A stretch of DNA of 64,000 nucleotides from Anaerolineae bacterium CG2_30_57_67 (GCA_001872455.1 MNXJ01000071.1:55830-119829); one strand, 5' to 3'. Counted from the first letter of the stretch, positions 2,649 to 44,381 are shown. The notes: generated by a model from the letters alone, not told the origin. Made by a program: numbers and translations.

Positions 2649-4415
2649 ATGAATCGTTCCGATTCTCCTTTTGTCGCCGATTGGTTTGTCATTTCCCTGC
2701 GCTGGCTGGTATTGCTGGGGGTTATTGTCTCACTTTCTGCCGCCGGGCAGCTCTTTGTGTGGGTAAATTTATTGCTTGTTTTTCTCACACTTTGGAATAT
2801 CACTCTTACCTGGCTGGCGGGATTAAATCAGCGTTTGCCTCAGCACCGTCACGTTAGCGTTGCCGTTGATGTGGTCGTGACCTCTCTGTTTTTCTGGTTT
2901 CAAGGAGGCATTACCGGTCCGGCATTTTGGATTTGCATCCTGCCGCTTATTTCGGGCGGGCTGTACTTTGACCTGTCCGGCGGATTGATTGCCGGCGTGG
3001 CAATGGGGCTGGTAAACGCCCTCGATATTGTTTTTCATGGCATCCAGATTGTACCGCGCCTGCTTTTTGGTGGGCTTACCATCGGCATGGGGCTTTTCTT
3101 TGGCTACATCAGCCAACAGGTAATTCGTCAATTGCGGGTGACACGCGAACAACAGGTGGCCGTCCGCGAACACCAACAACGCATTGAAACCGACCGGATG
3201 CGCGCCATTTTCAAAGTCACATCCACACTTACGGCAACCCTCAACTACAAGCGCGTTCTCGATAGCGCCCTCGACCTGAGCGTCAGCGCTTTACATGTGG
3301 ACGATGTCCAATCGGATAAAAAGACACCGATGGACGACCGCCTGATCAGCGCGTTTTTACTTTTTAAAGACGAGCAGCTGATCGTTGGCTCTTCACGCCG
3401 CTTCACCAGTGCTGACCATCGCCTCACCTTTCCAGCAAAAACTGGCATTCTGGCAAAAAGCATCGAAGAAGGCGAGTCGGTTTTAACAGGTAGTGTTGCC
3501 AGCGACCCGGAACTAAAAAGCGTCATGGGGCTGCAATCCTGCCAATCGGTTTACTGCCTGCCTTTGCGGGTGGGATTAAGCACCTATGGCGCGCTCATCT
3601 TTGGGCATCCTCAACCCAATTATTTTGCCCCCGACCGATGCGATGTCTTGAGCATTTTGGCGCAACAGGCCACCATCGCCATCCAAAATGCGCGCCTCTA
3701 TCAAGACCTGGCCGACGAAAAAGAACACATGGCCGAGGCGCAAGAAGAGGCGCGCAAAAAATTGGCGCGTGACCTGCATGATGGTCCAACTCAATCCGTC
3801 GCTGCGATTGCCATGCGCGTCAACCTGGTGCGCCGTATGCTGGAGCGCGACCCAAAATCTGTTATGGATGAATTAGAAAAAATTGAAGACCTGGCGCGCC
3901 GCACCACCAAGGAAATCCGCCACATGCTCTTCACCCTGCGCCCACTGGTGCTCGAATCGCAGGGGCTGGTTGCCGCCCTGCAAGCCATGGCCGACAAGAT
4001 GAAAGAAACTTTTGGGCAGGAAGTCGTCATTCAGGTCAATCAAAAACTGGCGGATGACCTGGAAATGGGCAAAAAAGGCATCATTTTTTATCTGGCCGAA
4101 GAAGCCATCAACAACGCCCGCAAGCATGCCCAATCACCGCAAATTTTTGTGCGTCTGGCAACCGTCCCAAAAGAACCCGAAATTGCCTGGCTGCAAATCG
4201 CGGATAATGGCGTTGGCTTTGATGTGCAGGCCGTTACCGCCACCTACGACCAGCGCGGCAGTCTTGGCATGGTCAACCTGCACGAGCGCACCGAACTGAT
4301 TAATGGTTTGCTCCAAATTGATTCCGCCCCCGGCAAAGGCACACGCGTCAATGTTTACATTCCCCTCAGTGAAGAAGCCGCCGATAAACTTCATCATGGC
4401 CGCGCCCACGACTGA
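2649..4415 (+). CDS. membrane GAF-domain sensor histidine kinase (HisKA_3/NarL-type)
   Basis: N-terminal TM region, central GAF-like region, H-box LARDLHDGPTQ, and a C-terminal ATPase with NNARKHA and DNGVGF motifs. Confidence 0.85.
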   Translation: MNRSDSPFVADWFVISLRWLVLLGVIVSLSAAGQLFVWVNLLLVFLTLWNITLTWLAGLNQRLPQHRHVSVAVDVVVTSLFFWFQGGITGPAFWICILPLISGGLYFDLSGGLIAGVAMGLVNALDIVFHGIQIVPRLLFGGLTIGMGLFFGYISQQVIRQLRVTREQQVAVREHQQRIETDRMRAIFKVTSTLTATLNYKRVLDSALDLSVSALHVDDVQSDKKTPMDDRLISAFLLFKDEQLIVGSSRRFTSADHRLTFPAKTGILAKSIEEGESVLTGSVASDPELKSVMGLQSCQSVYCLPLRVGLSTYGALIFGHPQPNYFAPDRCDVLSILAQQATIAIQNARLYQDLADEKEHMAEAQEEARKKLARDLHDGPTQSVAAIAMRVNLVRRMLERDPKSVMDELEKIEDLARRTTKEIRHMLFTLRPLVLESQGLVAALQAMADKMKETFGQEVVIQVNQKLADDLEMGKKGIIFYLAEEAINNARKHAQSPQIFVRLATVPKEPEIAWLQIADNGVGFDVQAVTATYDQRGSLGMVNLHERTELINGLLQIDSAPGKGTRVNVYIPLSEEAADKLHHGRAHD

Positions 4416-4423
4416 AAGCCGCT

Positions 4424-5203
4424 ATGCCGCTCATCCAAAATTTCCATTATTTCGTCCACAATGAACAAGACTTCTCCCGTCCGGCGGTTGTGCTTTTGCA
4501 CGGCGCGGGCGGCAACCATCTTTACTGGCCGACAGAAATACGCCGATTGGAAGGTCAGCGCATTTATGCCCTTGACCTGCCGGGCCATGGCAAATCACAA
4601 GGTATCGGGCGGCACGCCATCGCTGAATACGCTCAAGACGTGCTGGACTTTTTGGGCGCACTCCAAATTCGCAAGGCTATTTTTGTGGGGCATTCGATGG
4701 GTGGGGCGATTGCGCTCCACCTGGCGATTCACAACCCCAGCCGAACACTTGGGCTTGGGCTGGTAGCAACGGCTCCGCGCTTGCGCGTGGCTCCTGCTTT
4801 GATGGAGAATACGGCCTCTGCAGCCACGTTCCCGCTGGCAGTTGATGCCGTTATTAATTGGTCATTCAACCCCCAGGCAGGCGCGCGTCTGCGCGAGACT
4901 GCCCACCAGCGCATGGCAGAAATCCGTCCGGCGGTCTTACACGGCGATTTTTTAGCCTGCGATGCCTTTGACGAATCTGGCGCGCTGGGTCGCATCAAAA
5001 CCCCCACGCTCATTTTGTGCGGCACACAAGATAAAATGACGCCACTTCACGCCAGCGAACAAATGCAAATGCGCATTAAAAACGCCAGCCTGCACCGCAT
5101 TGACGGCGCCGGTCACATGCTGATGCTCGAAGAACCCGCGCGGGTCGCCAGCCTGCTACAGGTTTTTCTGGACGGGATTGTATACCAGCCGGGCGTTCTC
5201 TAA
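4424..5203 (+). CDS. alpha/beta hydrolase
   Basis: HGAGG oxyanion region, GHSMGG nucleophile elbow, C-terminal GAGHM. Confidence 0.8.
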   Translation: MPLIQNFHYFVHNEQDFSRPAVVLLHGAGGNHLYWPTEIRRLEGQRIYALDLPGHGKSQGIGRHAIAEYAQDVLDFLGALQIRKAIFVGHSMGGAIALHLAIHNPSRTLGLGLVATAPRLRVAPALMENTASAATFPLAVDAVINWSFNPQAGARLRETAHQRMAEIRPAVLHGDFLACDAFDESGALGRIKTPTLILCGTQDKMTPLHASEQMQMRIKNASLHRIDGAGHMLMLEEPARVASLLQVFLDGIVYQPGVL

Positions 5204-5793
5204 AAAAGTTTTTGCAAAACGGGCAGGGCCGCTTCAACCGCGCGGGCGCGATGGCTGAAGCGGTTTTTGGTTTCTGCGGGCAGTTCAGCCATGGTTTTGT
5301 CTAATTCGGGCAGGAAGAAGATGGGATCATAACCAAAGCCACCCTGGCCGCGTTCTGTGGGGATGATTTCACCTTCGCAGCGGCCCTCGGCAAAAGCCAG
5401 CTCACCACCCGGCGCAAGCATCGCCACCGTGGCGCGAAAACGCGCCAGCCACGGACGCGGCTTTCCGCGTAAATTTTCCAACAAAAAGGCGCGCCGGTCA
5501 GCGTCGGAGGCGCCCGGTTTGGCGGCGTAACGCGCCGAGTACAGCCCCGGCGCCCCGTTGAGCGCGTCCACTTCCAGCCCGGAATCATCCGCCAGGCAGG
5601 GCAGGCCGCTAGCGGCGCAGTACGCGCGGGCTTTTTTGGCAGCGTTTTCGGCGTAGGTCTGGCCGTCTTCTTCGACCTTGAGCATCAGTCCCAACTCGCG
5701 CGGGGTGACAAGTTTCAGATTCAACGGGGCCAGAATTTCTTGTAATTCACGGATTTTTCCGGGGTTTTCGGTGGCAATCAGCAGTTTTTTCAT
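5200..5793 (-). CDS. rdgB: non-canonical purine NTP pyrophosphatase (RdgB/HAM1)
   Basis: Starts MKKLLIATENPGKIRE and ends ...FGYDPIF...SHR. Internal ATG at 5793 chosen over the long ORF. Confidence 0.85.
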   Translation of the reverse strand: MKKLLIATENPGKIRELQEILAPLNLKLVTPRELGLMLKVEEDGQTYAENAAKKARAYCAASGLPCLADDSGLEVDALNGAPGLYSARYAAKPGASDADRRAFLLENLRGKPRPWLARFRATVAMLAPGGELAFAEGRCEGEIIPTERGQGGFGYDPIFFLPELDKTMAELPAETKNRFSHRARAVEAALPVLQKLF

Positions 5794-9174: not shown

Positions 9175-12100
9175 CTAAAGATTGTAGACTTTCACTTCTC
9201 CATCAACTTGTAAAAAAAACAGCCGGGTTTTGGGGCAAAAGCCAAGTTGGGCAGTAACAGCGGCGGCATAACGCGCCACTTGATGATCGTACCGTTCGCG
9301 ACGGATGGTGGATTGCGCTTCGGATTCGCTGCGGACATCGTCCGTCTTGAAGTCAATGATGAACCAACCTGCTTCGGTGTGGTAGAGCAAATCCATGATG
9401 CCGCGCTCGTCAGGTAAATCATAGCGGACTTCGTGGTGACGTTCGGCGGAGTCGAGTTCGGCAAAAAGGGGATGTGCGCGCAAGCGTTCCAACAGGCGGC
9501 GGGATTCTTGAATGGCGGCGTAGATTTCTTTGGGGTCGGTCAATCCAGATTCGAGCGCAAAGGGTTTCAGAAAATTATCAAAGTCATCATCGGGGAAATG
9601 CCAGCGGCGGATGGCTTCGTGGACGAGGCGTCCCACCAGCCAGGCGGGGGCGCGCGCGGTCTTGGTTTTCGAGACGATGCGCCAGACGCGCTGGGGTGGG
9701 TCGGATTCGTTGGCGCGGAGTTTCGCATCGCGGTCGGCGAGGGGAATGTTTGGGGCGAGGGGCGGGAGGATATCAGAACTCACCCCCAGCCCCTCTCCCT
9801 TTAGGAGAGGGGAGTCTGTCGAAACAGAATCAGGCTGAGGCGCGGAAGGAACGTCCGCTGGGGAGGAGGAATAGATCGAGGCGGAGATTCCGTCTGGGAG
9901 CAGGAAATGCTCGGGCGTAGACATCTCCACCTGTGCCTGCGGCACTGGCGCAGGCAAAAAAGAGAACTTGGAAAGCCAACCTGAAAGAGAGAACGTGCCG
10001 TCTTTTTTGAGTTTGACGTGACCGCTGACGATGAGTTTTTCTTTGGCACGGGTCGCGGCGACGTAAAGCAGGCGGTTGTCCTCGGCTTCGGCGCGGTCGT
10101 CTTCGAGGCGGGCGGCAAGTTGCCAGGCGGTGGAATGGAAGTCGTCATCGCGCAGATCAAGCAGGAGGTTGTTCGTGAGTTGGATTTTTGCGCCCGCGCC
10201 GCGATGTTCATAAGCCGCGTCAGCCAGGACGGTGAGGGGGAATTCGAGACCTTTGGCTTTGTGAACGGTCATCAGTTGAACGGCACCCGCACTGGCGGAA
10301 TCGGCGGGGGCTTCGCCTTCGCGCAGGCCGACATCACGCAAGGTTTTAACGTAGGCGAGAAAGTCGGTCAGGCTGACGAGGCGCGAGCGGTGCGCGTCGG
10401 CGAGTAATTTTTCCACGTTGCGGATCATGCGCGCGCCGTTTGGGCTAGAGGCGAGGATGGCACGGTAGTGGGTAAGGTCGAGCAGGCGTTTGAGGATAGC
10501 GGCGGCGGGAGCGCGGGAGGACAAATCATGAAGCTCGGTGAGGATGGATAAATTATGAATTAGGAATGATGAATTAGGAATTGAATTACGGAGGCTGTCA
10601 ATAATTTTAGCAGGAGTACTTGATTGATTGGGAAAGCGCAATTTGTAGATTTCCGCGTCGGGAAGAGCGAAGGCGGGGGAGCGGAGCAGGCCGACGAGGG
10701 CGAGGTCATCGGTGGGGTCGGCGATGGCGGTGAGGATGTTGAGCAGGTCGCGGATTTCGGGACGGTCGTAGAAGCCGCGTCCCGCCACGGTGACGAAGGG
10801 AATGTCCGCCGCTTCGAGCGCGTCTTCGTAGACGGGGAAGGCGGTGGAGGAGCGGAAGAGCAAAGCCATGTCGCCCCAGTCAAAGCCTTCGTTTTGATGG
10901 AGTTCGCGCAGACGGCGGGCAAGGGCTTGCGCGGATGCGGCGCGTCCTTCGTCTGCGGATTCTCCCATGCCAAGATGAAATTCGATGAAGGGCGGTTGGA
11001 TGTTTTCGCGTTTTGGATTCTGACGATAGGCGTGCAATGGCGCGAAGGGAACGGCATAGGGACGCGCGGGGTCATCAGTCTCGCCGAGGATGGGAGCCAG
11101 CAGGGAGTTAAGCGAATCGAGCAGAGGTTTGTGCGCGCGGAAGGTCAGGTCGAGGTCAATCAGTTCGCCGCCAGAAGATTGGATGTCGGCTTGAACCTGG
11201 CGGAAGACGGTCACATCGGCGGAGCGAAATTTGTAGATAGATTGTTTGGAGTCGCCCACGATGAAGAGGTCAACCCCCACCATCATCCCCAGCCCTTCTC
11301 CCGAGGGGAGAAGGGAGTCTGCTCCCTCTACCTTAGGGAGAGGGTTTGGGTGAGGGGAAAATCCCGTCAACGCGTAGACGATTTGTCTTTGGCGGTCATT
11401 GGTGTCCTGAAATTCATCCACGAGTACGGCGCGTAATTCAGATTGGAGTTCGGCGCGGACGTTGGGGTACGCCGTCAGTAATTGCGCGGTGAGACCTTCG
11501 AGATCATCGAAGTCGAGGGATTGACGTTCGTTCTTGCGTCGTTGATATTCGAGTTGCGTTTGGTCAAGCAGGCGGTGGATGGCGGGGAGATGCGCGGCCA
11601 GTTGTTCGTCCAGCGCGAAGCGGGATTTCTCGGCGAGGAATTTGAGATGTTCATCGTAAATTTCACGCAAAGCTTTCATCGCGTCGCGGATGGTTTCGAT
11701 ATCAGCATCAGCCCAGTTGCTTTTTTGTCCCTGCGTGGAGATGGCTTTGCGAAGCGCTGTGAGACTCAAAAGAACGGCGTCCCAGCTTTGCGCGGCGCGA
11801 GATTGTTGGATTTCATCCCATTTTACAAGAACGGCTTGGCGAGCAAGTTCAAGTTTGTCTTCGGGAGAGGTTGATTGCAAGGATGCGAGATTGGATAATG
11901 CATCAACCCAAGTTTGAGCATCGAGATACGTGGCAAGATAAGAGGAAAGAGCAAGTTCAAAACTTGTACACGGATTTGACGGATTACGCGGATTCTCACG
12001 GATTTCTTTTTTGTTTTTTCCGTGCAACTCCGTGAAATCCGTGTCATCCGTGTACAAAGATTTTACATCCAACCGACGGCTCATCAACGCGTTGAGAATT

Positions 12101-12633
12101 TGTCGCAATTCGTTTTCTTTGAAGATGCCAAACAGCGCGGAGGATGACTCATCGGTAGAAGCCCACGCCAGCGCTGCCTCAATCGCTTCGGCTTGCAACG
12201 CGGCGGACAGTCCCTCTTCGAGAACTTCAAACTGGGGGTCGAGTCCAGCCTCAGCGGGATGGGAGCGGAGAATTTCGGCGCAGAGGGAGTGGATCGTTCC
12301 AATGCGGGCGGAATCAATATTCTTCATCATCCCCAGCCCTTCCCCCGAAAGGGGAAGGGAGTCATCTGTCCCATCTCCCTTTGGGAGATGGGTAGGGTGA
12401 TGGGAAAGCGCGCTGCGAATCCGCGAGCGCATTTCCCGCGCGGCTTTTTCGGTGAAGGTGATGGCGAGGATGGAGCGGATGAGATAGCCCTGTTCCAGCA
12501 AATGCAAATAACGCCCTACCAGCGAAAGTGTCTTGCCGGAACCCGCGCCCGCCGTGACTGCGATAGCACGCGCCGAATCCGTGACGGCTTGTTGCTGGTT
12601 GCCTTTGAAGGAGAAGTGGGTGAATAAAGTCAT
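9175..12633 (-). CDS. UvrD/AddA-like ATP-dependent helicase with C-terminal PD-(D/E)XK nuclease domain
   Basis: Walker A AGAGSGKT, motif II VDEFQDT, motif III VGDSKQSIYKFRSA, C-terminal IIDFKTD...QVARY nuclease motifs. Carries four in-frame repeat insertions. Confidence 0.85.
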   Translation of the reverse strand: MTLFTHFSFKGNQQQAVTDSARAIAVTAGAGSGKTLSLVGRYLHLLEQGYLIRSILAITFTEKAAREMRSRIRSALSHHPTHLPKGDGTDDSLPLSGEGLGMMKNIDSARIGTIHSLCAEILRSHPAEAGLDPQFEVLEEGLSAALQAEAIEAALAWASTDESSSALFGIFKENELRQILNALMSRRLDVKSLYTDDTDFTELHGKNKKEIRENPRNPSNPCTSFELALSSYLATYLDAQTWVDALSNLASLQSTSPEDKLELARQAVLVKWDEIQQSRAAQSWDAVLLSLTALRKAISTQGQKSNWADADIETIRDAMKALREIYDEHLKFLAEKSRFALDEQLAAHLPAIHRLLDQTQLEYQRRKNERQSLDFDDLEGLTAQLLTAYPNVRAELQSELRAVLVDEFQDTNDRQRQIVYALTGFSPHPNPLPKVEGADSLLPSGEGLGMMVGVDLFIVGDSKQSIYKFRSADVTVFRQVQADIQSSGGELIDLDLTFRAHKPLLDSLNSLLAPILGETDDPARPYAVPFAPLHAYRQNPKRENIQPPFIEFHLGMGESADEGRAASAQALARRLRELHQNEGFDWGDMALLFRSSTAFPVYEDALEAADIPFVTVAGRGFYDRPEIRDLLNILTAIADPTDDLALVGLLRSPAFALPDAEIYKLRFPNQSSTPAKIIDSLRNSIPNSSFLIHNLSILTELHDLSSRAPAAAILKRLLDLTHYRAILASSPNGARMIRNVEKLLADAHRSRLVSLTDFLAYVKTLRDVGLREGEAPADSASAGAVQLMTVHKAKGLEFPLTVLADAAYEHRGAGAKIQLTNNLLLDLRDDDFHSTAWQLAARLEDDRAEAEDNRLLYVAATRAKEKLIVSGHVKLKKDGTFSLSGWLSKFSFLPAPVPQAQVEMSTPEHFLLPDGISASIYSSSPADVPSAPQPDSVSTDSPLLKGEGLGVSSDILPPLAPNIPLADRDAKLRANESDPPQRVWRIVSKTKTARAPAWLVGRLVHEAIRRWHFPDDDFDNFLKPFALESGLTDPKEIYAAIQESRRLLERLRAHPLFAELDSAERHHEVRYDLPDERGIMDLLYHTEAGWFIIDFKTDDVRSESEAQSTIRRERYDHQVARYAAAVTAQLGFCPKTRLFFLQVDGEVKVYNL
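9781..9816 (-). repeat. in-frame half palindromic element (36 nt) inside helicase
   Basis: Hairpin CCCCTCTCC-CTTTA-GGAGAGGGG. Encodes DSPLLKGEGLGV. Confidence 0.7.
11281..11355 (-). repeat. in-frame double-hairpin palindromic element (75 nt) inside helicase
   Basis: Hairpins CCCTTCTCCC-GAG-GGGAGAAGGG and CCCTCT(A)CC-TTA-GGGAGAGGG. Encodes PHPNPLPKVEGADSLLPSGEGLGMM. Confidence 0.75.
11966..12055 (-). repeat. in-frame 90-nt MITE-like element inside helicase
   Basis: Perfect 10-bp terminal inverted repeats GTACACGGAT/ATCCGTGTAC and internal CGGAT/ATCCG repeats. Encodes ...TDDTDFTELHGKNKKEIRENPRNPSNPC... Confidence 0.75.
12325..12402 (-). repeat. in-frame double-hairpin palindromic element (78 nt) inside helicase
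   Basis: Hairpins CCCTTCCCC-GAAA-GGGGAAGGG and CCCATCTCCC-TTTG-GGAGATGGG. Encodes HHPTHLPKGDGTDDSLPLSGEGLGMM. Confidence 0.75.
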
Positions 12634-20114: not shown

Positions 20115-20237
20115 CTGGTGAATACCCACAAATCGTCAAATGTCGTCCTGCGGCCAAAAGCGACATAAATATCGCGCTACGTTGTGCGATATTTATGTCG
20201 CTTTACATGGTAGAGCAAAGATATGGGGTATCACCGA
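20115..20237 (+). mobile_element. MITE-like element family A, copy with expanded core palindrome
   Basis: CTGGTGAATACCCAC...GGGGTATCACCG termini. The core GCGACATAAAT/ATTTATGTCGC is split by a 20-nt hairpin. Confidence 0.7.
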
Positions 20238-22133: not shown

Positions 22134-22142
22134 AATGAAATT

Positions 22143-22283
22143 GTAGGGCAAGTCTGTGACTTGCCGCGCAAATTGGAAATTTGCGCCATGTAGCGCAAGT
22201 CTGCGACTTGCGACGCAAATTGGAAATTTGCGCCACGTAGCGCAAGTCTGCGACTTGCGACGCAAATCAGAGATTTGCGCCAC
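22143..22283. repeat. three tandem 47-nt REP doublet units
   Basis: Units at 22143-22189, 22190-22236 and 22237-22283. Each is GTAGCGCAAGTC-N4-GACTTGCG plus GCGCAAATT-GGA-AATTTGCGC. The last unit has the CAGAG loop variant. Confidence 0.9.
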
Positions 22284-22671
22284 GCAGCAACGCTGGGATT
22301 TCAATCAACATATCATCGCGCACCTTGCGGAAATCGGCAATATCATCGGTCTTGGCGGGGTCGGGAAAACTATGATGGACGCGCTTGCCTTTCCCGAGCC
22401 AGACGGGACATTCCTCCGCCGCCGAATCGCAGACCGTGACGACGACGTCAAACTCCGCGCTGCGGAATTCGTCCGCGAGTTTGGAGCGTCCCTCGTGTTG
22501 GATTCCAATCTCTGCAAGCGCGGCAATCGCTTTGGGGTGGACGAACCCCGCGGGCTTCGTCCCTGCGCTGACGGCTTGCCACTCGTCCGCCAGCCGCGCA
22601 TTGACAATTGCCTCCGCCATTTGCGAGCGGCAGGAATTACCTGTGCATAAAAATAAGACCTTGCGTTTCAT
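22267..22671 (-). CDS. arsC: arsenate reductase, LMW-PTPase (thioredoxin-coupled) type
   Basis: CTGNSCRS P-loop, later Cys (VTVCDSAAEECP) and DP motif. The last 5 codons and the stop lie in REP unit 3. Confidence 0.9.
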   Translation of the reverse strand: MKRKVLFLCTGNSCRSQMAEAIVNARLADEWQAVSAGTKPAGFVHPKAIAALAEIGIQHEGRSKLADEFRSAEFDVVVTVCDSAAEECPVWLGKGKRVHHSFPDPAKTDDIADFRKVRDDMLIEIPALLRGANL

Positions 22672-24799: not shown

Positions 24800-24820
24800 T
24801 GTTTTTCCTTGATGTAATGT

Positions 24821-24867
24821 GTAGCGCAAGTCTCTGACTTGCGGCGCAAATTGGAAATTTGCGCTAC
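24821..24867. repeat. 47-nt REP doublet unit
   Basis: GTAGCGCAAGTCTCTGACTTGCGGCGCAAATTGGAAATTTGCGCTAC. Confidence 0.9.
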
Positions 24868-24941
24868 GATAGCGTGGCTTTCACTTCATCCATCGTCGGA
24901 TACGCGCCCACTTTAATCACCTTGCCGCGCACAACGATAAT
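24868..24941 (-). pseudogene. relic 3' end (last 24 codons plus stop) of a second arsD
   Basis: 65/74 nt identical to 24991-25064. Translates IIVVRGKVIKVGAYPTMDEVKATLS*, versus ...TADEVKAALS* in the intact arsD. Confidence 0.8.
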
Positions 24942-24943
24942 GT

Positions 24944-24990
24944 GTGGCGCAAGTCTCTGACTTGCGGCGCAAATTGGAAATTTGCGCTAC
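24944..24990. repeat. 47-nt REP doublet unit
   Basis: Differs from 24821-24867 at 1 of 47 positions. Contains the arsD stop codon (24987-24989). Confidence 0.9.
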
Positions 24991-25334
24991 GATAGCGCGG
25001 CTTTGACTTCATCCGCTGTTGGGTACGCGCCCACTTTGATGACCTTGCCGCGCACAACGATAATCGGCAGGGCGTCCATTTGTTTCTCGCGGACGAGTTT
25101 CATCACTTCGGCATTGCCCAAAAAGGCGTTGGGGCTGCTCGCCATCTGATAGCGTTCCACGCGCAAGTTGTCGCGCTGGAGCGACATGACCATCTCGTTC
25201 ACGTCCAGCAAAGTTTGGTCAAGGACGGGCCCGCATAGTCCAGTGGGGCAGCACATCGGCGGGTCGAAGAATTCCACGTCCGCGGGGGCAATCGAAATCG
25301 GCAGGGTGTTGAGCAAGGGGATAACGTCAGTCAT
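24987..25334 (-). CDS. arsD: arsenic metallochaperone ArsD
   Basis: FDPPMCCPTGLCGP (Cys12/13/18 equivalents). The true start may be GTG at 25277 (VEFFDPPMCC) rather than ATG at 25334. Confidence 0.88.
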   Translation of the reverse strand: MTDVIPLLNTLPISIAPADVEFFDPPMCCPTGLCGPVLDQTLLDVNEMVMSLQRDNLRVERYQMASSPNAFLGNAEVMKLVREKQMDALPIIVVRGKVIKVGAYPTADEVKAALS

Positions 25335-37602: not shown

Positions 37603-38850
37603 ATGCAAACACCCTGGGAATATCGCTACGCCCACCGCACCCAAAAAATGGGCAGTTCCGTCATCCGCGAACTGCTCAAGCTAACGGAACAACCCGACAT
37701 CATCTCGTTTGCGGGCGGCCTGCCCGCCCCGGAAGTTTTTCCGGTGCAAAAGTTTAAGGAAGCCTGCAATTATGTGCTGGAAAATGAGTGGGCGCAGGCG
37801 CTGCAATACGGCGCAACCGAAGGTTTCACCCCGTTGCGCGAGATGATTGCCCGTCATACCGGGCGTTACAGCGTCAAAGTGACCCCCGAAAATATCATGA
37901 TCACCTCTGGCTCGCAGCAGGCGCTGGATTTTATCGGGCGGCTGTTCCTCAATCGGGGCGATTACATCGTCGTCGAGTCGCCCACCTACCTGGGCGCGCT
38001 GCAAGCCTGGAACGCCTACGGGGCGCAATACATCGCTGTTCCTTCCGATGAACACGGCATGATTGTTGACGAATTGGAAAAAGTGCTGCGCATCGGGCCA
38101 AAATTCATCTATGTTTTGCCCAATTTCCAAAACCCCTCGGGCGTGACGATGAGCCTGGAACGCCGCAAAAAACTGGTCGAAATCGCCGACCGCTACGGCG
38201 TGCCGATTGTCGAAGATGACCCCTACGGCCAGCTGCGCTACGACGGCGACCATCTGCCCTCGGTGGTGGCGCTCGACGCTGAGTATCGCGGCGATAACGG
38301 CACCTACACCGGCAACGTCATCTACCTGAGCACGTTTTCCAAACTGCTGGCGCCCGGCCTGCGCCTGGCCTGGGTGATTGCCCCCAACGAAGTCATCCGC
38401 CGCCTGGTGATGAGCAAACAAGCCGCCGATTTGCACACATCAACCTTCACGCAGGTGGTGGCCTACGAAGTCGCCAAAGGCGGATTTTTGGACGAGCACG
38501 TCAAACTCATCCGCGCCACGTACAAGGAACGCCGCGATATGATGCTGGAAACGATGGACGAACTTTTCCCGTCCGAAGTGCGCTACACGCGTCCCGAAGG
38601 CGGCATGTTCCTGTGGGGCATTTTGCCCGAAAATATGGACGCGGCGGAACTCTTCAAGAAGGCGATTGATAAAAAAGTGGCCTTTGTGCCGGGCGCGGCT
38701 TTTCACCCCACCGGCGGCGGAAAAAACACCCTGCGCCTGAACTTTTCCTACTCGCGCCCGGAGATTATCCGCGAGGGCATCACCCGCCTCGGCCTGCTTC
38801 TGCGCGAGGAAGTTGCCAAAAACGCGCAAAGCAAACACCTCTACGATTAG
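37603..38850 (+). CDS. PLP-dependent aminotransferase (class I/II, 2-aminoadipate/aromatic type)
   Basis: YLSTFSKLLAPGLRLAW PLP-lysine motif. 415 aa. Confidence 0.8.
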   Translation: MQTPWEYRYAHRTQKMGSSVIRELLKLTEQPDIISFAGGLPAPEVFPVQKFKEACNYVLENEWAQALQYGATEGFTPLREMIARHTGRYSVKVTPENIMITSGSQQALDFIGRLFLNRGDYIVVESPTYLGALQAWNAYGAQYIAVPSDEHGMIVDELEKVLRIGPKFIYVLPNFQNPSGVTMSLERRKKLVEIADRYGVPIVEDDPYGQLRYDGDHLPSVVALDAEYRGDNGTYTGNVIYLSTFSKLLAPGLRLAWVIAPNEVIRRLVMSKQAADLHTSTFTQVVAYEVAKGGFLDEHVKLIRATYKERRDMMLETMDELFPSEVRYTRPEGGMFLWGILPENMDAAELFKKAIDKKVAFVPGAAFHPTGGGKNTLRLNFSYSRPEIIREGITRLGLLLREEVAKNAQSKHLYD

Positions 38851-38869
38851 TTTCTCCCCAACCTTGCAG

Positions 38870-38897
38870 CGCCGGTCATCCGACCGGCGTTTTTTTT
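38870..38897 (+). terminator. intrinsic terminator after the aminotransferase gene
   Basis: CGCCGGTC-ATCC-GACCGGCG followed by TTTTTTTT. Confidence 0.85.
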
Positions 38898-38906
38898 GTG
38901 GCGGAA

Positions 38907-38915
38907 TGCTATAAT
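38907..38915 (+). promoter_or_regulatory. extended -10 promoter element upstream of dnaE
   Basis: TGcTATAAT. No good -35 element was seen. Confidence 0.45.
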
Positions 38916-38920
38916 CTTGT

Positions 38921-38983
38921 CAGTTGCCGGTTGTCAGTGATCAGTTGCCAGTTGCCAGTTATCAGTTGTCAGTAACCGGTAAC
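38921..38983 (+). repeat. nine tandem heptanucleotide repeats (CAGTTGC consensus) in the dnaE leader
   Basis: CAGTTGC CGGTTGT CAGTGAT CAGTTGC CAGTTGC CAGTTAT CAGTTGT CAGTAAC CGGTAAC. Confidence 0.9.
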
Positions 38984-38990
38984 CCGCTAT

Positions 38991-39093
38991 TCCCTGTTTC
39001 CCCCTCTTCCCATCTTCTTTTCTCCTCTCTCCTCCTCTTCTCCTCTTCTTTTCTCTCCTCTTCCCCTCTTCCCCCCTCCCCCCCTCCCGCCCC
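38991..39093 (+). other. 103-nt polypyrimidine tract ending at the dnaE start codon
   Basis: Only three purines in 103 nt, and 39013-39088 is an unbroken run of 76 C/T. No Shine-Dalgarno sequence before ATG 39094. Confidence 0.9.
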
Positions 39094-42000
39094 ATGTCCT
39101 TCGTTCACCTGCACACCCACACGGTTTACTCGCTCCTGGATGGTTTTTCCAACATCAAGAAGCTGGTCAAACGCGCCAAAGAAATGGACATGCCCGCGCT
39201 GGCGATTACCGACCACGGCACCATGTTCGGCGTGGTCGAATTCTACAACGCCGCCAAAGAAGCCGGGGTCAAACCCATCATCGGCGTGGAAACTTACATG
39301 GCCGCGCGTGGCATGCAAGACCGCGACTCCAAACTGGATAAAAAGTCCAGCCACCTGCTGCTGCTGGCCGAAAATGAAACCGGCTACAAAAACCTGCTCA
39401 AAATCACCTCCGCCGCGCAAATGGATGGTTTTTACTACTATCCGCGCATTGACCACGACTTTCTGGCGGCGCATTCCGAGGGGCTGATTGCCACCTCGGG
39501 CTGCATGTCCGCCGAAATTCCACGTCATCTGCTGGAGGAAAAACCCGAAGAAGCCGTGCGCCGCATGAACTGGTACTTTGACGTTTTCGGCCCCGACCGC
39601 TTCTACGTGGAATTACAGCAGCACAACATCGCCGAAATGGTGGGGCTCAACCGCCGCCTGGTGGAAATGGGCGCAAAATACTCGGCCAAATTTGTCGCCA
39701 CCAACGATGTTCACTACATCGAACCGGAGGACGCCGATTACCAGGACGTGCTGCTCGCCATTCAGACGGGAAAATTACTCAGCGACCCCGACCGGATGCG
39801 CTACGACAGCAAAACCTTCTACCTGCGCTCCCCGCAGGAGATGAGCCGCCTGTTTGCCGAAATCCCCGAAGCGCTGAGTCACACCCTCGAAATCGCCGAA
39901 CGCTGCAACGTGGACCTCGGTTTCAAGGGCTATCACCTGCCCGAATTCCCCGTCCCGCCCGAGTTTACCGCCGAAACCTACCTGCGCCACCTGTGCGACG
40001 AGGGCCTCGAAAAACGCTACGGCGCGCACAAAACCGACCCGGAAATCTGCGAGCGGCTCGAATTTGAGTTAAACGTCATTCACACGATGGGCTTTGACGC
40101 CTACTTTCTCATCGTGTGGGATTTGTGCCGTCACGCCCGCGAAAATGGCATCTGGTACAACACGCGCGGCTCCGGCGCTGGATCGCTGGTGGCCTATTCG
40201 CTTTTCATCACGCTGGTAGACCCCATCGCGCATCACCTGCTTTTTGAGCGCTTTCTCAATCCCGGGCGCGTTTCCATGCCCGATATTGACCTGGATTTCC
40301 GCGATGACCGCCGCTCCGAAATGCTGGTTTACGCCGCCCAAAAATATGGTGATGACAAAGTGGCGCAAATCATCACCTTCGGCACGATGGCCGCGCGCGG
40401 TGCGCTGCGCGATGTGGCGCGCGTGATGGATATTCCCATCCCCGAAGTGGACAAGATTGCCAAACTTGTCCCCAATATCCCCGGCAAACCCATGTCGCTT
40501 TCCGAAGCGCTCGACCAGGTGCCGGATTTCAAGGCCGCCTACAACAGCGACCCGAAAATCAAAAAGCTGGTGGACACCGCCATTCACATGGAAGGCACCG
40601 TCCGCAACGCCGGCACGCACGCCGCCGGGTTGGTGATTTCGGACAAGCCGATTACCGAGTATCTGCCCATTCACCGGCCAACCTCCGGCTCGGAAGAATC
40701 GCCCGTCAAAACCGTCACCCAGTTTGAGATGGGCATCCTCGACGGCATGGGCATGCTCAAGGTGGATTTCCTCGGCCTTTCCACGCTGACGGTGATGGCG
40801 CGCGCCTGCGGCATGATTAAAGAACACTACGGCAAAGACTACGACCTGAACAACATCCCGCTCGACGACCCGGAAACCTTCAAATTACTCGGCGAAGGCA
40901 AAACGGCGGGCGTCTTCCAATTGGAAGGCACGGGTATGACGCGCTACGTCGTCGAGATGAAACCCAAAAACCTCGACCACATCATCGCCATGGTGGCGCT
41001 CTACCGCCCCGGCCCAATGGATTTCATCCCCAGCTACATCCGCCGCATGCACGGCGAAGAACCGATTGTCTATCGTCACCCCTCGCTGGAGCCAATTTTC
41101 AACGACACCTACGGCATCCCGGTCTACCAGGAACAAATCATGCGCGCGGCAGTGGAAGTCGCCGGCTACAGCCGCTCCGAATCGGACGACCTGCGCAAAG
41201 CCATTTCCAAAAAACAATTTGAGAAAATCGCCAAGCACAAACAAAAATTCATCCACGGCGCGGTAGACAAAGGCGTGATGAACGAAGCCACCGCCACGGC
41301 GATTTTTGAAGACTGGGAACAATTCGCCCGCTACGGCTTCAACAAAAGCCACGCCGCCGATTACGGCCTCGTCTCCGTACAGACCGCCTTTCTGAAAGCG
41401 CACTACCCCGCCGAATACATGAGCGCGCTCATGTCGGTTTTCAAAGACGACAGCGCCAAAGTCTCGCTCTACATCGCCGAAGCGCGCGCCCTCAGCATCG
41501 CCGCGCTGCAGCCCGACGTGAACCATTCCCTGCTGGATTTCAGCATCGAAGACCCGCTGGACGAAAAAGGCCAAAAACATTCTGCCATTCGTTTTGGCAT
41601 GAGCGCCATCAAAAATGTCGGCATCGGCCCGGTGGAATTGATTTTGGCTGGCCGTCGCGTGAACGGAATCGAAAAACCCTTCAGCGACCTGAACGACCTC
41701 GCCCAGCGCGTGGATTTGAAATCCGTCGGCAAGCGCTCGCTCGAATACCTGATCAAGGCCGGAGCGTTGGATTCGTTTGGTGAGCGCGCCGCCCTGCTGG
41801 CCGCCCTCGATCAGTTGGTCGCCGTCAGCGCCGGTCACTTCAAAGCGGTGGACAGCGGCCAGATGTCGCTCTTCGGCGCGGCAACCGGCGTTCAGGCGCA
41901 GAACATCAGCCTCGGCAGCCAGAAAACCGACAAAAAAGAAGCCCTCGCCTGGGAACGCGAATTGATGGGCGTCTATCTTTCCGACCACCCGCTCAAAGCC

Positions 42001-43371
42001 TACGAGGAACTGCTGTTAAGCGGTGTCAGTCACAACTCGCTGACGTTGAGCGAGGCCACCAGCCCCCAACCCTGCCGCGTGGCGGGTTTGGTGGTTTCCT
42101 CGCGCCCCTACAAAACCAAAAAAGATACCATGATGGGTTTCGTGACGCTGGAAGATTTGACCGGCAACATCGAGCTGGTCATTTTCCCGCGCGCCTGGGA
42201 AAAATACCGCGCCCTGTGCGAAGACGGCAAAGTGATTTTGGCGGTTGGCAAAATTGACCCGGCCACCACCCCGCCCAAAGTGCTGGTGGACGAAATTCGC
42301 ACCGATTTCAAGGTCTATTCCTCGGTTAATCAGTTTTCCAGTTCTCCAGTTGACCAGTTATCCAGTTCTTCGGTTAGCCAGTTTTTCAGTTCTCCAGTTG
42401 ACCAGTTATCCAGTTCTCCAGTTAATCAGTTCTCCGGTTATCCAGTTAACCAGTTCTCCAGTTCTCCAGTTAATCAGTTATCCAGTTCTCCAGTTAATCA
42501 GTTTTCCAGTTCCGCCGTCCAACCAGCCAACCGCCCAACCGGACAACCGGACAACCGTCCAACCGGACAACCGGACAACCGGACAACTGCCCAACCGGAT
42601 AACCGCTCAACCGCCCAACCGGACAACCGCCCAACCGCCCAACCGGACAACCGGACAACTGCCCAACCGGATAGCCGCCCAACCGCCCAACCGGACAACT
42701 GCCCAACCGGACAACCGGACAACCGCCCAACCGCCCAACCGGACAACGACTTTACCAACCTGCCGCCCGAACCCGATTTCCCTGACGACTGGGACATGGA
42801 CGTTTCTCCCGCTCCGCTCCGCGCCGCGCCGCCGCCCGCGCCCATGGACGACGCCTTGTACGCCGAAGAACAACAACTGGACAACCGGATAACCGAACAG
42901 CTGGACAACCGAACAACCGAACAACCGGACAACCGAACAACCGAACAACCGGACAACCGGACAACCGAACAACTGGACAACCGGACAACCGAACAACCGG
43001 ACAACCGTCCAACCGGACAACCGGACAACCGGACAACCGAACAACCGAACAACCGCCCGGCCCCACAATTTGATTTTCGCCCCTTGACCCGCGCCGCGCC
43101 CGAACCCGACCTGCCGCCGCGCATGATAACCATTGTCCTGCGTCCCAACGGCGACCCGGAACGCGACCGGCGGCGGCTCAAAAACATCTATTTCATTCTC
43201 ATGTCGCAGCCTGGCAAAGACCGCTTTCAGTTTCAAATTTTTGAAGGCGGCAAAGGTCATCTGATTGATTTTCCCAACGACAGCACGCGCCTGAATGCCG
43301 AACTGCTGACACGCCTGAAAAACCTGACCGGCGACGAAATCTGGCGCATCGAGGACATTAACTACCTGTGA
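39094..43371 (+). CDS. dnaE: DNA polymerase III alpha subunit with a long repeat-encoded insertion near the C-terminus
   Basis: PHP N-terminus FVHLHTHTVYSLLDG, polymerase core, HhH and OB fold (to about residue 1075), low-complexity repeats, then a roughly 100-aa tail. Confidence 0.92.
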   Translation: MSFVHLHTHTVYSLLDGFSNIKKLVKRAKEMDMPALAITDHGTMFGVVEFYNAAKEAGVKPIIGVETYMAARGMQDRDSKLDKKSSHLLLLAENETGYKNLLKITSAAQMDGFYYYPRIDHDFLAAHSEGLIATSGCMSAEIPRHLLEEKPEEAVRRMNWYFDVFGPDRFYVELQQHNIAEMVGLNRRLVEMGAKYSAKFVATNDVHYIEPEDADYQDVLLAIQTGKLLSDPDRMRYDSKTFYLRSPQEMSRLFAEIPEALSHTLEIAERCNVDLGFKGYHLPEFPVPPEFTAETYLRHLCDEGLEKRYGAHKTDPEICERLEFELNVIHTMGFDAYFLIVWDLCRHARENGIWYNTRGSGAGSLVAYSLFITLVDPIAHHLLFERFLNPGRVSMPDIDLDFRDDRRSEMLVYAAQKYGDDKVAQIITFGTMAARGALRDVARVMDIPIPEVDKIAKLVPNIPGKPMSLSEALDQVPDFKAAYNSDPKIKKLVDTAIHMEGTVRNAGTHAAGLVISDKPITEYLPIHRPTSGSEESPVKTVTQFEMGILDGMGMLKVDFLGLSTLTVMARACGMIKEHYGKDYDLNNIPLDDPETFKLLGEGKTAGVFQLEGTGMTRYVVEMKPKNLDHIIAMVALYRPGPMDFIPSYIRRMHGEEPIVYRHPSLEPIFNDTYGIPVYQEQIMRAAVEVAGYSRSESDDLRKAISKKQFEKIAKHKQKFIHGAVDKGVMNEATATAIFEDWEQFARYGFNKSHAADYGLVSVQTAFLKAHYPAEYMSALMSVFKDDSAKVSLYIAEARALSIAALQPDVNHSLLDFSIEDPLDEKGQKHSAIRFGMSAIKNVGIGPVELILAGRRVNGIEKPFSDLNDLAQRVDLKSVGKRSLEYLIKAGALDSFGERAALLAALDQLVAVSAGHFKAVDSGQMSLFGAATGVQAQNISLGSQKTDKKEALAWERELMGVYLSDHPLKAYEELLLSGVSHNSLTLSEATSPQPCRVAGLVVSSRPYKTKKDTMMGFVTLEDLTGNIELVIFPRAWEKYRALCEDGKVILAVGKIDPATTPPKVLVDEIRTDFKVYSSVNQFSSSPVDQLSSSSVSQFFSSPVDQLSSSPVNQFSGYPVNQFSSSPVNQLSSSPVNQFSSSAVQPANRPTGQPDNRPTGQPDNRTTAQPDNRSTAQPDNRPTAQPDNRTTAQPDSRPTAQPDNCPTGQPDNRPTAQPDNDFTNLPPEPDFPDDWDMDVSPAPLRAAPPPAPMDDALYAEEQQLDNRITEQLDNRTTEQPDNRTTEQPDNRTTEQLDNRTTEQPDNRPTGQPDNRTTEQPNNRPAPQFDFRPLTRAAPEPDLPPRMITIVLRPNGDPERDRRRLKNIYFILMSQPGKDRFQFQIFEGGKGHLIDFPNDSTRLNAELLTRLKNLTGDEIWRIEDINYL
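42323..42746 (+). repeat. 53 in-register octanucleotide repeat units inside dnaE
   Basis: 24 units of CAGTTNNC/CGGTTNNC (42323-42514) followed without phase break by 29 units of CCGSMCAA (42515-42746). Confidence 0.9.
42877..43052 (+). repeat. 22 octanucleotide repeat units (CCGRACAA) inside dnaE
   Basis: CTGGACAA CCGGATAA CCGAACAG CTGGACAA CCGAACAA ... counted unit by unit. Confidence 0.9.
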
Positions 43372-44381
43372 TCTACCGTCTGCTGCGCCCCCTGCTCTTC
43401 CGGCTGGAACCGGAAGCCGCGCACCAACTCACCCTGCGGCTGATTGCCCTCGCCGGGCAAATTCCACCCGCCCGCTGGGCGCTGACCGCGCTCTTCGCCG
43501 CGCCCGCCCGACCGGTGAACGCCTTCGGCCTGCAATTCAAAAACCCCGTTGGCCTGGCGGCTGGTTATGACAAGGACGGCCTCGCCGTACGCGGGCTGGC
43601 CGCTCTCGGCTTCGGCCACCTCGAAATCGGCACCGTCACCCCCCGGCCCCAGCCCGGCAACCTGCGCCCACGCGTTTTTCGCCTTCCGCAAGACGAAGCC
43701 GTCATCAACCGCATGGGGTTTCCCGGCCAGGGCATGGAAATCGTCGCTGGCAACCTGCGCCGTGCGCCCGGCGTACCGCTGGGCATCAACCTCGGCAAAA
43801 ACAAAGATACCCCGCTGGAAGCCGCCGCCGAAGATTACCTGGCGCTCATGCGCCGTTTTTCCGGCCAGGCCGACTACTTTGCCATCAACATTTCATCGCC
43901 CAACACGGTTGGCCTGCGCCGCCTGCAGGGCCGCGCCATGCTGGAAAACCTGCTGGCGGCAGTCGCCCGCGCCCGGCGAGAACTGCCGCCCGCGCCCATC
44001 CTGGTCAAACTCGCCCCCGATTTGAGCGATGAAGAACTGGATGACGCGCTGGCCGCGATTGTGGCGAACGGCATGGACGGCGTCATCGCCACCAACACGA
44101 CTCTGCGCCGCGAAGGGCTGACCTCCCCGCTGAAAATTGAATCCGGCGGCCTGAGCGGACGCCCGCTGACGGCGCTGGCCGATGCCACCCTGGAGAAAAT
44201 TGTCGCCCGCCTGGCTGGCCGGTTGCCGGTCGTGGCTGTTGGCGGCATTCTCACCCCTGCCGACGCGCGCCGCAAGTTGGAACTGGGCGCAACGCTGGTA
44301 CAAATTTACACCGGTCTGGTCTACGCCGGGCCGCGGCTGGTGCAAAAAATTATTCGTGAAATTCCTGCGCCTGGTAAGTGA
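43368..44381 (+). CDS. pyrD: dihydroorotate dehydrogenase (quinone), class 2
   Basis: GLAAGYDKDG, EIGTVTPRPQPGN and NISSPNT motifs. The GTG start overlaps the dnaE TGA (GTGA). Confidence 0.9.
   Translation: MIYRLLRPLLFRLEPEAAHQLTLRLIALAGQIPPARWALTALFAAPARPVNAFGLQFKNPVGLAAGYDKDGLAVRGLAALGFGHLEIGTVTPRPQPGNLRPRVFRLPQDEAVINRMGFPGQGMEIVAGNLRRAPGVPLGINLGKNKDTPLEAAAEDYLALMRRFSGQADYFAINISSPNTVGLRRLQGRAMLENLLAAVARARRELPPAPILVKLAPDLSDEELDDALAAIVANGMDGVIATNTTLRREGLTSPLKIESGGLSGRPLTALADATLEKIVARLAGRLPVVAVGGILTPADARRKLELGATLVQIYTGLVYAGPRLVQKIIREIPAPGK

Follow-up and report, generated by a model that had tools for sequence, protein, structure and literature searches.

Several described systems come close to the locus reported here, a set of translated octanucleotide arrays inside dnaE, the gene for the DNA polymerase III alpha subunit (Pol III alpha), in Anaerolineae bacterium CG2_30_57_67, from groundwater. 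The arrays lie in a stretch of 64,000 nucleotides (nt) of this genome, which we call the window and in whose coordinates all positions are given unless another contig is named. A survey of Pol III alpha describes the C-terminal domain (CTD) as poorly conserved and often undetected; the CTD binds tau, and DnaE2 never has one (PMC3919608). Bacterial in-frame coding minisatellites (variable-number tandem repeats, VNTRs) have a period that is a multiple of 3, differ by whole units, and encode polar, low-complexity sequence between conserved flanking domains. Simple-sequence-repeat (SSR) contingency loci are perfect, homogeneous tracts in non-essential surface or restriction-modification genes, with ON and OFF alleles; examples are the tetranucleotide tracts of Haemophilus and Neisseria (PMC2651432). 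In 2-oxoacid dehydrogenase acyltransferases (E2), Ala/Pro-rich linkers form flexible tethers between folded domains. The short tandemly repeated repetitive (STRR) heptamers of filamentous cyanobacteria, reportedly described by Mazel et al. in 1990, are tandem 7-nt units of few families, dispersed mostly in leaders and intergenic regions, with families side by side.

The window locus shares something with each of these systems and matches none of them fully. As in E. coli and Thermus aquaticus DnaE1, the encoded protein has the order PHP-Pol3-HhH-OB at equivalog score and an internal QMSLF sequence, and its terminal domain of ~84 residues has those alpha subunits among its best fold matches. 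Unlike the solved alpha enzymes, in which the OB fold and the CTD are adjacent, the Anaerolineales proteins have a spacer of 128-205 residues between them and the window protein one of 263, and the window CTD is invisible to sequence profiles. The arrays resemble coding VNTRs in having a period that is a multiple of 3 (24 nt), whole-unit differences, polar low complexity and conserved flanking domains, whereas their 24-nt unit consists of three 8-nt units that also occur untranslated in leaders, and the host gene encodes a replicase. They resemble STRR heptamers in kind only. The window belongs to the Chloroflexota, not to a cyanobacterial lineage, and the units follow a CRGTTG core, not the STRR consensus; they also come in 8-nt versions and form long translated arrays in housekeeping genes, within the ~85 kb of this genome that we inspected for the repeat family. 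Like the tracts of SSR contingency loci, the window unit lies within an open reading frame (ORF) and is not a multiple of 3, so that changes of 1-2 units truncate the product. Unlike those tracts, the units are interrupted, the host gene encodes a replicase, and every full-length version keeps the frame. Finally, the repeats form a flexible tether between folded domains, as E2 Ala/Pro linkers and Pfam family PF04886 do, but with a Q/P/D/N/R/T composition that comes from a non-triplet DNA repeat. It is likely that the arrays are a translated in-frame minisatellite, drawn from a genome-recurrent repeat family, that lengthens the disordered tether between the OB fold and the CTD of DnaE1. The data give no support to phase variation. 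In the literature on Anaerolineae octa- and heptanucleotide repeats, on STRR and on Crystal Geyser, we found no description of these arrays.

The gene and the features within it are all on the plus strand:

39094-43371, plus: dnaE, a DnaE1-type Pol III alpha of 1425 residues (ORF and family profiles)
41860-41874, plus: QMSLF, residues 923-927, candidate internal beta-clamp-binding motif (sequence reading)
42076-42300, plus: OB fold, residues 995-1069 (Pfam; aligns to the E. coli, M. tuberculosis and Thermus alpha chains)
42323-42514, plus: array 1, 24 octamers with core CRGTT in eight 24-nt super-units, encoding V(N/D)Q(F/L)SSSP
42515-42746, plus: array 2, 29 octamers of CCGGACAA/CCGCCCAA types, in opposite (reverse-complement) orientation to the array 1 core, encoding QPDNRPT(G/A)
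42747-42876, plus: non-repetitive stretch of linker that separates array 2 from array 3 and contains two motifs that relatives conserve
42763-42792, plus: PPEPDFPDDW motif
42841-42861, plus: PMDDxL motif
42877-43052, plus: array 3, 22 octamers of CCGAACAA/CCGGACAA types, encoding QPDNRTTE
43120-43368, plus: C-terminal domain, residues 1343-1425, beta-alpha-beta-beta-alpha-beta, presumed tau-binding CTD (predicted fold, conservation)

As the gene for a DnaE1-type replicase, dnaE is presumably essential. The assignment to this type comes from scores of 1315.6 bits against NCBIfam PRK06826 (cut-off 1260) and 1265 bits against PRK05673 (cut-off 1002). The PHP domain, the palm/thumb/fingers core, the HhH and the OB fold follow one another in the order of DnaE1 members and at family score, with Pfam matches to PHP (residues 5-177), DNA_pol3_alpha (296-561), finger (564-727), HHH_6 (802-899) and OB (995-1069). 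QMSLF presumably corresponds to the internal clamp-binding motif of the QL[SD]LF type, at a position that we take to be comparable to that of QADMF in E. coli. The identical 1425-residue protein is present in public data as NCP85759.1, OIO84024.1 and PJB68276.1 ('Anaerolineae bacterium CG_4_9_14_3_um_filter_57_17'), and its exact sequence is found on 9 contigs. A single assembly accident thus does not explain the arrays. The name CG_4_9_14_3_um_filter presumably points to the Crystal Geyser aquifer series.

An initial annotation of the window, made from the sequence alone, had described three sets of octamers in unbroken register between the OB fold and the tail, and this was borne out. Between the OB fold (residues 995-1069) and a tail of ~84 residues lie 53 consecutive octamers at 42323-42746, divided into 24 (42323-42514) and 29 (42515-42746), and a further 22 at 42877-43052, all in a single register with zero indels. 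Tandem Repeats Finder recovers all three arrays. The translated octamers total ~600 bases, and the 75 units account for 200 of the 263 linker residues. Motif counts are far above expectation, with 27 matches to CAGTTNNCCAGTT against 0.63 expected and 48 matches to CAACCGNNCAACCG against 0.77; none of 100 shuffles reached 27 or 48, respectively. Although the octamers are real, the consensus first given for them fits just 15 of the 24 units in array 1, 20 of 29 in array 2 and 16 of 22 in array 3. The core CRGTT is present in every unit of array 1 (24/24). The later arrays were also correctly described as the reverse complement of the seed seen in array 1 and the leader: CCGGACAA, reverse-complemented and register-shifted, becomes CGGTTGTC, which agrees with the CRGTT core shared by array 1 and the heptamers in the dnaE leader.

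The units are far from homogeneous. Arrays 1, 2 and 3 contain 12, 8 and 6 distinct unit sequences, their longest runs of identical units are 2, 3 and 3, and the longest exact repeat within the arrays is 36 nt. In all three, a period of 24 outscores a period of 8, both by autocorrelation (0.83-0.91 at lag 24 vs 0.71-0.86 at lag 8) and by Tandem Repeats Finder matches (84-90% vs 77-86%). Array 1 amounts to a 24-nt unit repeated eight times, in which three octamer subtypes follow one another in a fixed order.

Three units equal 8 codons, and the units are translated inside dnaE, as first reported, into the 8-residue repeats VNQFSSSP, QPDNRPTx and QPDNRTTE. Since an 8-nt unit is read in three frames over three units and gives one cyclic 8-residue peptide, arrays 2 and 3 have hardly any stops on the plus strand, whatever the frame. 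Array 2 has 2 stops on the plus strand and 1 on the minus strand, and array 3 has 1 on the plus strand. The initial annotation had stated more broadly that both strands are free of stops in every frame; for array 1 this is wrong, since its plus frame 1 has 8 stops exactly 24 nt apart and its minus strand has 15. The alternative plus frame does terminate at 42892, as had been noted. When the gain or loss of 1 or 2 units was simulated, DnaE ended at residues 1083-1333 and the tail was lost, and a change of 3 units retained it. The arithmetic behind the proposed phase-variation-like layout is right; the phase-variable architecture drawn from it is without support. A clamp-binding motif in array 1 (QLSSS/QFSSS) was considered and rejected, as the hydrophobic positions of QL[SD]LF are absent, and inspection of the sequence found no clamp-binding-like or other known motif in the repeats.

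To compare the linker, defined as the segment from the OB fold to the tail, we measured it in 59 relatives with a measurable ORF. In these it is 128-205 residues long, Pro/Ala/Glu-rich and non-repetitive (n = 59), and only PPEPDFPDDW and PMDDxL are conserved. At 263 residues, the window linker exceeds all 59 of these in length. Polar or disorder-promoting residues make up 86% of it and hydrophobic ones 14% (35% in the DnaE core), and it matches PF04886 ('PT disordered repeat') at 35.5 bits (cut-off 26.2). As in coding minisatellites, a segment of variable length among homologues lies here between conserved folded domains. The linker is not always repeat-encoded, a question that the initial annotation had raised: CAGTT/CAACCG octamers are carried by only four of the 59 relatives, the closest ones (L002, L004, L006 and L010), whose DnaE core identity is 83-89% over the BLASTP-aligned stretch (for L004 and L006 the first 613-765 residues only). 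Their octamers occupy the site of arrays 1 and 2 in the corresponding order, with fewer copies (~11 + 6 units in both L004 and L006, ~5 + 9 in L010 and ~12 degenerate units in L002). Array 3 has no counterpart in any relative examined. From this comparison, the lineage of the window appears to have enlarged an older repeat seed. In a more distant relative, the DnaE of MFD01213.bin.1.46 (L022), the linker contains translated heptamers, CAACCTT, AGTTGAA and CAACCTG, in ~4.5 copies each, which suggests an independent colonisation of the same permissive linker site.

The tail beyond the arrays is widely conserved, which settles a further question of the initial annotation. It has 31 close homologues and is found at at least 327 confirmed loci among species-representative genomes; of these, 80 are listed, nearly all labelled Anaerolineales, Anaerolineae or Chloroflexota. 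Among 1.84 billion proteins, 928 cluster representatives match the tail at E<=1e-3, and in all of the listed representatives (150/150) the match lies at or near the protein C-terminus. An AlphaFold2 model from 32 sequences, trimmed to the domain, has a pLDDT of 84.8, a pTM of 0.72 and the order beta-alpha-beta-beta-alpha-beta. A fold search of the whole PDB with this model places Thermus aquaticus Pol III alpha in all six top positions (2hpi, 4iqj chains A-D and 3e0d), with E values of 5e-4 to 6e-2, TM scores of 0.50-0.61 (0.57-0.61 for the best five) and root-mean-square deviations of 3.2-3.8 A over 78-88 columns; the list of matches further includes E. coli 5fkv and 5fku. A CTD after the OB fold, as in DnaE1, is thus indicated by fold match, with the matched target residues not reported and the sequence profiles empty: the tail has no sequence match in Pfam, NCBIfam or PDB. 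Because of its conservation, the fold matches to Thermus alpha and the known poor sequence conservation of the CTD, we read the modelled tail as the canonical Pol III alpha C-terminal domain. By this reading the DnaE tail would bind tau; the DnaX of this organism is not encoded in the window.

The dnaE arrays belong to a repeat family that this organism carries in a number of leaders and flexible linkers. The initial annotation had proposed a search for other in-ORF octamer arrays in the genome, and one was found in an E2 acyltransferase gene on another contig:

L130 (Ga0210041_1004935) 3598-4273, plus: repeats of the E2 gene
L130 3638-4975, plus: E2 ORF

The protein, a 2-oxoacid dehydrogenase acyltransferase, is represented by NCP88444.1, OIO83448.1 and PJB67637.1, and from the NCP/OIO/PJB prefixes shared with the DnaE accessions we infer that it comes from the same submitted genomes. 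The L130 contig shares two dispersed repeats with the window. A dispersed hairpin element with core AAAGCGACATAAATGTCGCTTT occurs in the window at 20133, 28724, 37290, 47624 and 51072 and once on the E2 contig (L130 585-636), which marks L130 as the same genome or a very close one. The E2 protein has the Pfam domains lipoyl (residues 5-76), E3-binding (117-151) and catalytic (213-440). Its linker 1 is encoded by five CAGTTGN heptamers and then seven CCGNCAA heptamers, and its linker 2 by a purine-rich tract and then 16 octamers of the CCGGACAA type, whose PDNRPTGQ repeats are identical to those of DnaE array 2. The E2 5' leader also consists of heptamers. All three full-length cluster members are 445 residues long, and the exact sequence is present on 21 contigs.

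A third site lies on L103 (Ga0210044_10000273), where eight CCGAACAA/CCGGACAA octamers at 218-287 are 95% identical to window 42912-42981. They occupy a short spacer between the stop of the upstream gene and the ATG of a leuB-like gene (MNFNITLLPGDGIGPEV...). Within the ~85 kb inspected, tandem units of both lengths stand at several loci, a pattern that may be akin to STRR dispersal: heptamers in the leaders of dnaE and E2 and in the first E2 linker, octamers in the second E2 linker and in the leuB-like leader. Window 1759 and 10551 hold further heptamer families. A wider metagenome scan for five CRGTTNNN units gave at least 120 stretches, mostly unrelated octamer microsatellites of many organisms; the informative loci among the matches listed are L103, L130 and perhaps L095. 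A search with the array 1 + 2 peptide gave 19 ORFs, short and for the most part spurious, which cover similar repeats of other organisms; it recovered no host protein family, E2 included.

Copies of dnaE in other assemblies of the same population differ in length. A cluster at 90% identity contains 11 full-length versions, of 1425 (three), 1409, 1401 (two), 1393 (three), 1385 and 1369 residues. All differences are multiples of 8 residues, with whole 8-residue blocks missing from array 1 or 2, and all 11 versions keep frame. Array 3 is invariant in all assemblies, and point variants within the arrays (C to R, P to Q) also distinguish assemblies. Seven variant contigs, taken from JGI and ENA samples, were compared with the window at the DNA level. 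They match it exactly over the ~5 kb that lie outside arrays 1 and 2, the leader heptamers included. The deletions measure 48, 72, 72, 96, 96, 120 and 168 nt, all in arrays 1 and 2 and all multiples of 24; five of the seven are simple and have 15-36 nt of homology at their junctions, and the other two look compound. Of these contigs, four come from megahit at k141. The longest internal repeat is 36 nt, and de Bruijn graphs with k>=37 therefore resolve the arrays. Otherwise identical sequences thus differ by whole in-frame units, and the effective period is a multiple of 3, both as in coding minisatellites. These contigs are candidate alleles, whose length differences may be real. An apparent disrupted allele, L210, was rejected; it has a scaffold gap of 100 N in array 1.

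A simple mechanism could account for these features. The building block is a repeat of 7 or 8 nt built on C(A/G)GTT(G) or, in reverse complement, on CAAC(C/T)G, and it is present at several other loci of this organism, in 5' leaders, intercistronic spacers and flexible interdomain linkers. Within an ORF, three successive octamers are read in the three frames, whichever frame is entered, and yield a single cyclic peptide of 8 residues in which P, Q, D, N, S, T and R abound. Arrays would grow and shrink when replication slips or when partly identical units recombine unequally. The C-terminal domain stays in frame only if the number of units changes by 3n, so selection may act as a frame filter; this would explain the 24-nt super-structure and the fact that the differences between almost all assembled versions are multiples of 24 nt. 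Linker length seems to be loosely constrained (128-205 residues in relatives, 263 here), so expansion could be tolerated, and it is probably neutral or nearly so. A polar, proline-rich peptide suits a tether.

Several findings weigh against this account, beginning with the tail. The Foldseek matches come without a report of which part of alpha was matched, and an hhalign comparison of the tail with the E. coli alpha CTD aligned 16 columns (the last helix with residues 1141-1156) at a probability of 1.3%, which is not significant. A first AlphaFold2 model from 16 sequences, with linker residues included, had a pLDDT of 68.7 and no meaningful fold match; this shallow model was superseded by the deeper, trimmed one. 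As to the frame, every exact repeat of >=15 nt in array 1 is spaced 0 mod 24, as are 5/6 of the repeats of >=25 nt in array 2. The internal homologies are already in a 24-nt register, so homology-driven deletion, whether in the cell or by an assembler, would be mostly in frame, and multiples of 24 are by themselves no proof of selection. The variation is confined to a 424-nt block that exceeds short-read length, neither array 3 (176 nt) nor the array in E2 (131 nt) ever varies, and several assemblies break or gap inside array 1, so the length differences may be assembly effects. One contig, L211 (GCA_009994975.1 JAACQJ010000029.1), begins inside array 1 at 42499 and lacks two array 2 octamers. 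The deletion is of 16 nt (42660-42675, units CTGCCCAA CCGGATAG), with no other difference over 5.8 kb. The dnaE frame there meets a stop equivalent to 42892 and the tail falls out of frame; it is annotated as a separate 191-residue hypothetical protein, NCT19972.1, and the N-terminal 1103 residues are on another contig as a 'partial' DnaE, NCT20507.1. If real and abundant, this frame loss is tolerated at least transiently. The deletion lies 161 nt from a contig end within repeats, the least reliable part of an assembly. L211 is weak evidence that 2-unit changes can occur, and not evidence of a switch. No other out-of-frame product was found in the 90% cluster.

In one alternative explanation the arrays are real, the population is monomorphic, and the differences in length and frame are short-read assembly errors within the 424-nt block. 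This explanation is possible, but we think it rather unlikely. It fits the restriction of variation to the one block longer than a read, with array 3 and the E2 array constant, and the scaffold gaps and contig breaks in array 1. The flanks show zero substitutions, so the contigs may be one clone, and the longest version is also the most frequent (9 contigs). On the other side, no exact internal repeat exceeds 36 nt, and graphs at k>=37 are unambiguous. Novel junction k-mers should come from reads, given that 4/7 contigs are megahit k141 products and that the five simple deletions have junction homologies of 15-36 nt. The point variants in the arrays (C to R, P to Q) differ as well. A contingency locus, in which slippage by 1-2 octamers would switch DnaE between CTD-bearing and truncated forms, is the least probable of the explanations considered. 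The unit is not a multiple of 3, simulated 1-2 unit changes remove the tail, one partial contig (L211) has a 2-unit out-of-frame deletion with the tail as a separate 191-residue ORF, and the frequent breaks inside array 1 would fit heterogeneity. Set against this, the long, perfect, homogeneous tract of such loci is missing (no more than three identical units in a row, with a 24-nt super-structure), all 11 full-length versions are in frame, and the L211 case lies within 161 nt of a contig end inside repeats. The alternative-frame peptide had zero matches among 5.8 billion protein cluster representatives, and the tail is conserved across at least 327 genomes. Nor, presumably, is the gene a dispensable one for a surface or restriction-modification function; it encodes a DnaE1-type replicase. 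The E2 repeats are likewise in frame, with no length variants among full-length cluster members.

Other explanations place the function in the nucleic acid or in the peptide. CRGTTG units could be protein-binding sites, or could form RNA or DNA structure by pairing of array 1 with array 2 or of the leader with arrays 2 and 3, and so regulate dnaE, with translation incidental. The core is common to the 5' leader and the coding arrays, arrays 1 and 2 are inverted, with the same order (CAGTTG type, then CAACYG type) in E2 linker 1, and the RNA of 42300-42770 folds at -118 kcal/mol vs -93 for shuffles (z = -4.9). However, that fold is a diffuse zipper of 3-bp helices with an ensemble frequency of ~0 and a centroid of -64 kcal/mol, and an inverted-repeat search of 38800-43400 (9-nt exact seed, 14-nt minimum) found no arm pair between arrays 1 and 2. 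There is also no Rfam match, copy number and unit sequence drift among relatives, most of which are without repeats, and the leaders of relatives hold heptamers of unrelated sequence, all of which makes a nucleic-acid role very improbable. The peptide repeats could instead be functional themselves, for multivalent replisome docking or as a spacer of selected length, and their expansion adaptive. In line with this, arrays persist at the linker site in four related species, the variable positions of array 1 have diverged with the coding frame stop-free and 8 stops in one alternative plus frame, and the linker is the longest of 60. But the identical PDNRPTGQ serves as a linker in an unrelated enzyme (E2), 55/59 relatives are without repeats, 8-residue blocks are present or absent among otherwise identical contigs, and the repeats hold no known motif; we regard this explanation as improbable. 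There is an outside chance that the CRGTTG repeats belong to an active lineage-specific system, for example as the recognition or slippage motif of an enzyme or DNA-binding protein, that keeps creating and resizing disordered linkers and 5' leaders throughout the genome. Tethers would then vary in real time, with occasional viable alleles in which the tau-binding domain is uncoupled, and the consequence would be stochastic change in replisome coupling.

If the arrays are a coding minisatellite, as we favour, a non-triplet microsatellite can be domesticated as protein-coding material, and one DNA unit can be reused both in the linkers of unrelated enzymes and in untranslated leaders. The comparison also documents that in Anaerolineales DnaE1 the OB fold is separated from the C-terminal domain by a long disordered spacer. 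To our knowledge, solved Pol III alpha structures do not show such a spacer. Should the tail bind tau, the spacer would mean that polymerase and clamp loader are coupled much more loosely. The locus is a natural test of how far a replisome tolerates changes in linker length, and overturns no principle. On the practical side, such arrays break or distort short-read assemblies and lead to split or truncated dnaE calls, of which NCT19972.1 and NCT20507.1 are examples.

The region upstream of dnaE contains the following features:

38868-38899, plus: intrinsic terminator of the upstream aminotransferase gene, a GC stem and T run
38906-38915, plus: ATGCTATAAT, a -10-like candidate promoter element (putative function)
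38921-38983, plus: nine tandem heptamers (CAGTTGC, CGGTTGT, CAGTGAT etc.) with the CRGTT core, in the dnaE 5' leader
38990-39093, plus: C/T-rich tract, ~100 nt of almost pure pyrimidine, up to the ATG

The ATGCTATAAT decamer is also present upstream of dnaE in relatives. The leader heptamer motif has 6 matches vs 0.46 expected. No purine-rich Shine-Dalgarno sequence is visible in 38990-39093. In E2 linker 2 a purine-rich tract, of the complement type, adjoins the octamers, and a composite of repeat plus polypyrimidine may recur in both orientations. In seven relatives (L002, L003, L004, L006, L007, L009 and L010) a box, AACGAACACCCGTTCC (GAAC-N4-GTTC), lies ~60-90 nt upstream of ATGCTATAAT before dnaE; we take it to resemble an SOS box of the LexA/Cheo type. 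The window keeps ATGCTATAAT, and the box is absent, with the terminator in its place. Rfam identified two tRNAs only in the whole window.

Some relatives have longer DnaE ORFs. The stop-to-stop DnaE ORFs of L004, L006, L012, L026, L034, L037, L043 and L071 are ~1680-1750 residues long, and that of L031, at 2098 residues, runs off the end of the locus. These are 300-400 residues longer than the ORFs of other relatives. The window DnaE core aligns to L004 and L006 only up to residues 613 and 765. Judged from these alignments, the extra length looks like an insertion in the polymerase core, possibly an intein.

Repeats of other kinds occur elsewhere in the window and on L095. A 1152-residue ORF at 9175-12633 on the minus strand, which by its translation appears to encode a UvrD/AddA-like helicase-nuclease, contains translated heptamers (AATGATG/AATTAGG) at 10551-10582 and, at 11967-12054, 9-mers CACGGATTT with inverted copies. 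It also has three 'LP..GEGLG' peptide inserts that look like a translated dispersed repeat. On L095 (Ga0210033_1000006), which may come from another organism, an intergenic stretch at 5120-5250 has AATGATG heptamers, CGGTTTTC octamers and CTGATAA heptamers side by side; the AATGATG heptamer is common to this stretch and window 10551. Finally, a 47-nt element with two internal palindromes (GTAGCGCAAGTCTGCGACTTGCG ACGCAAATTGGAAATTTGCGCCAC) is present in three tandem copies and twice more in a 123-nt duplication, at window 22142-22284 and 24815-25064.

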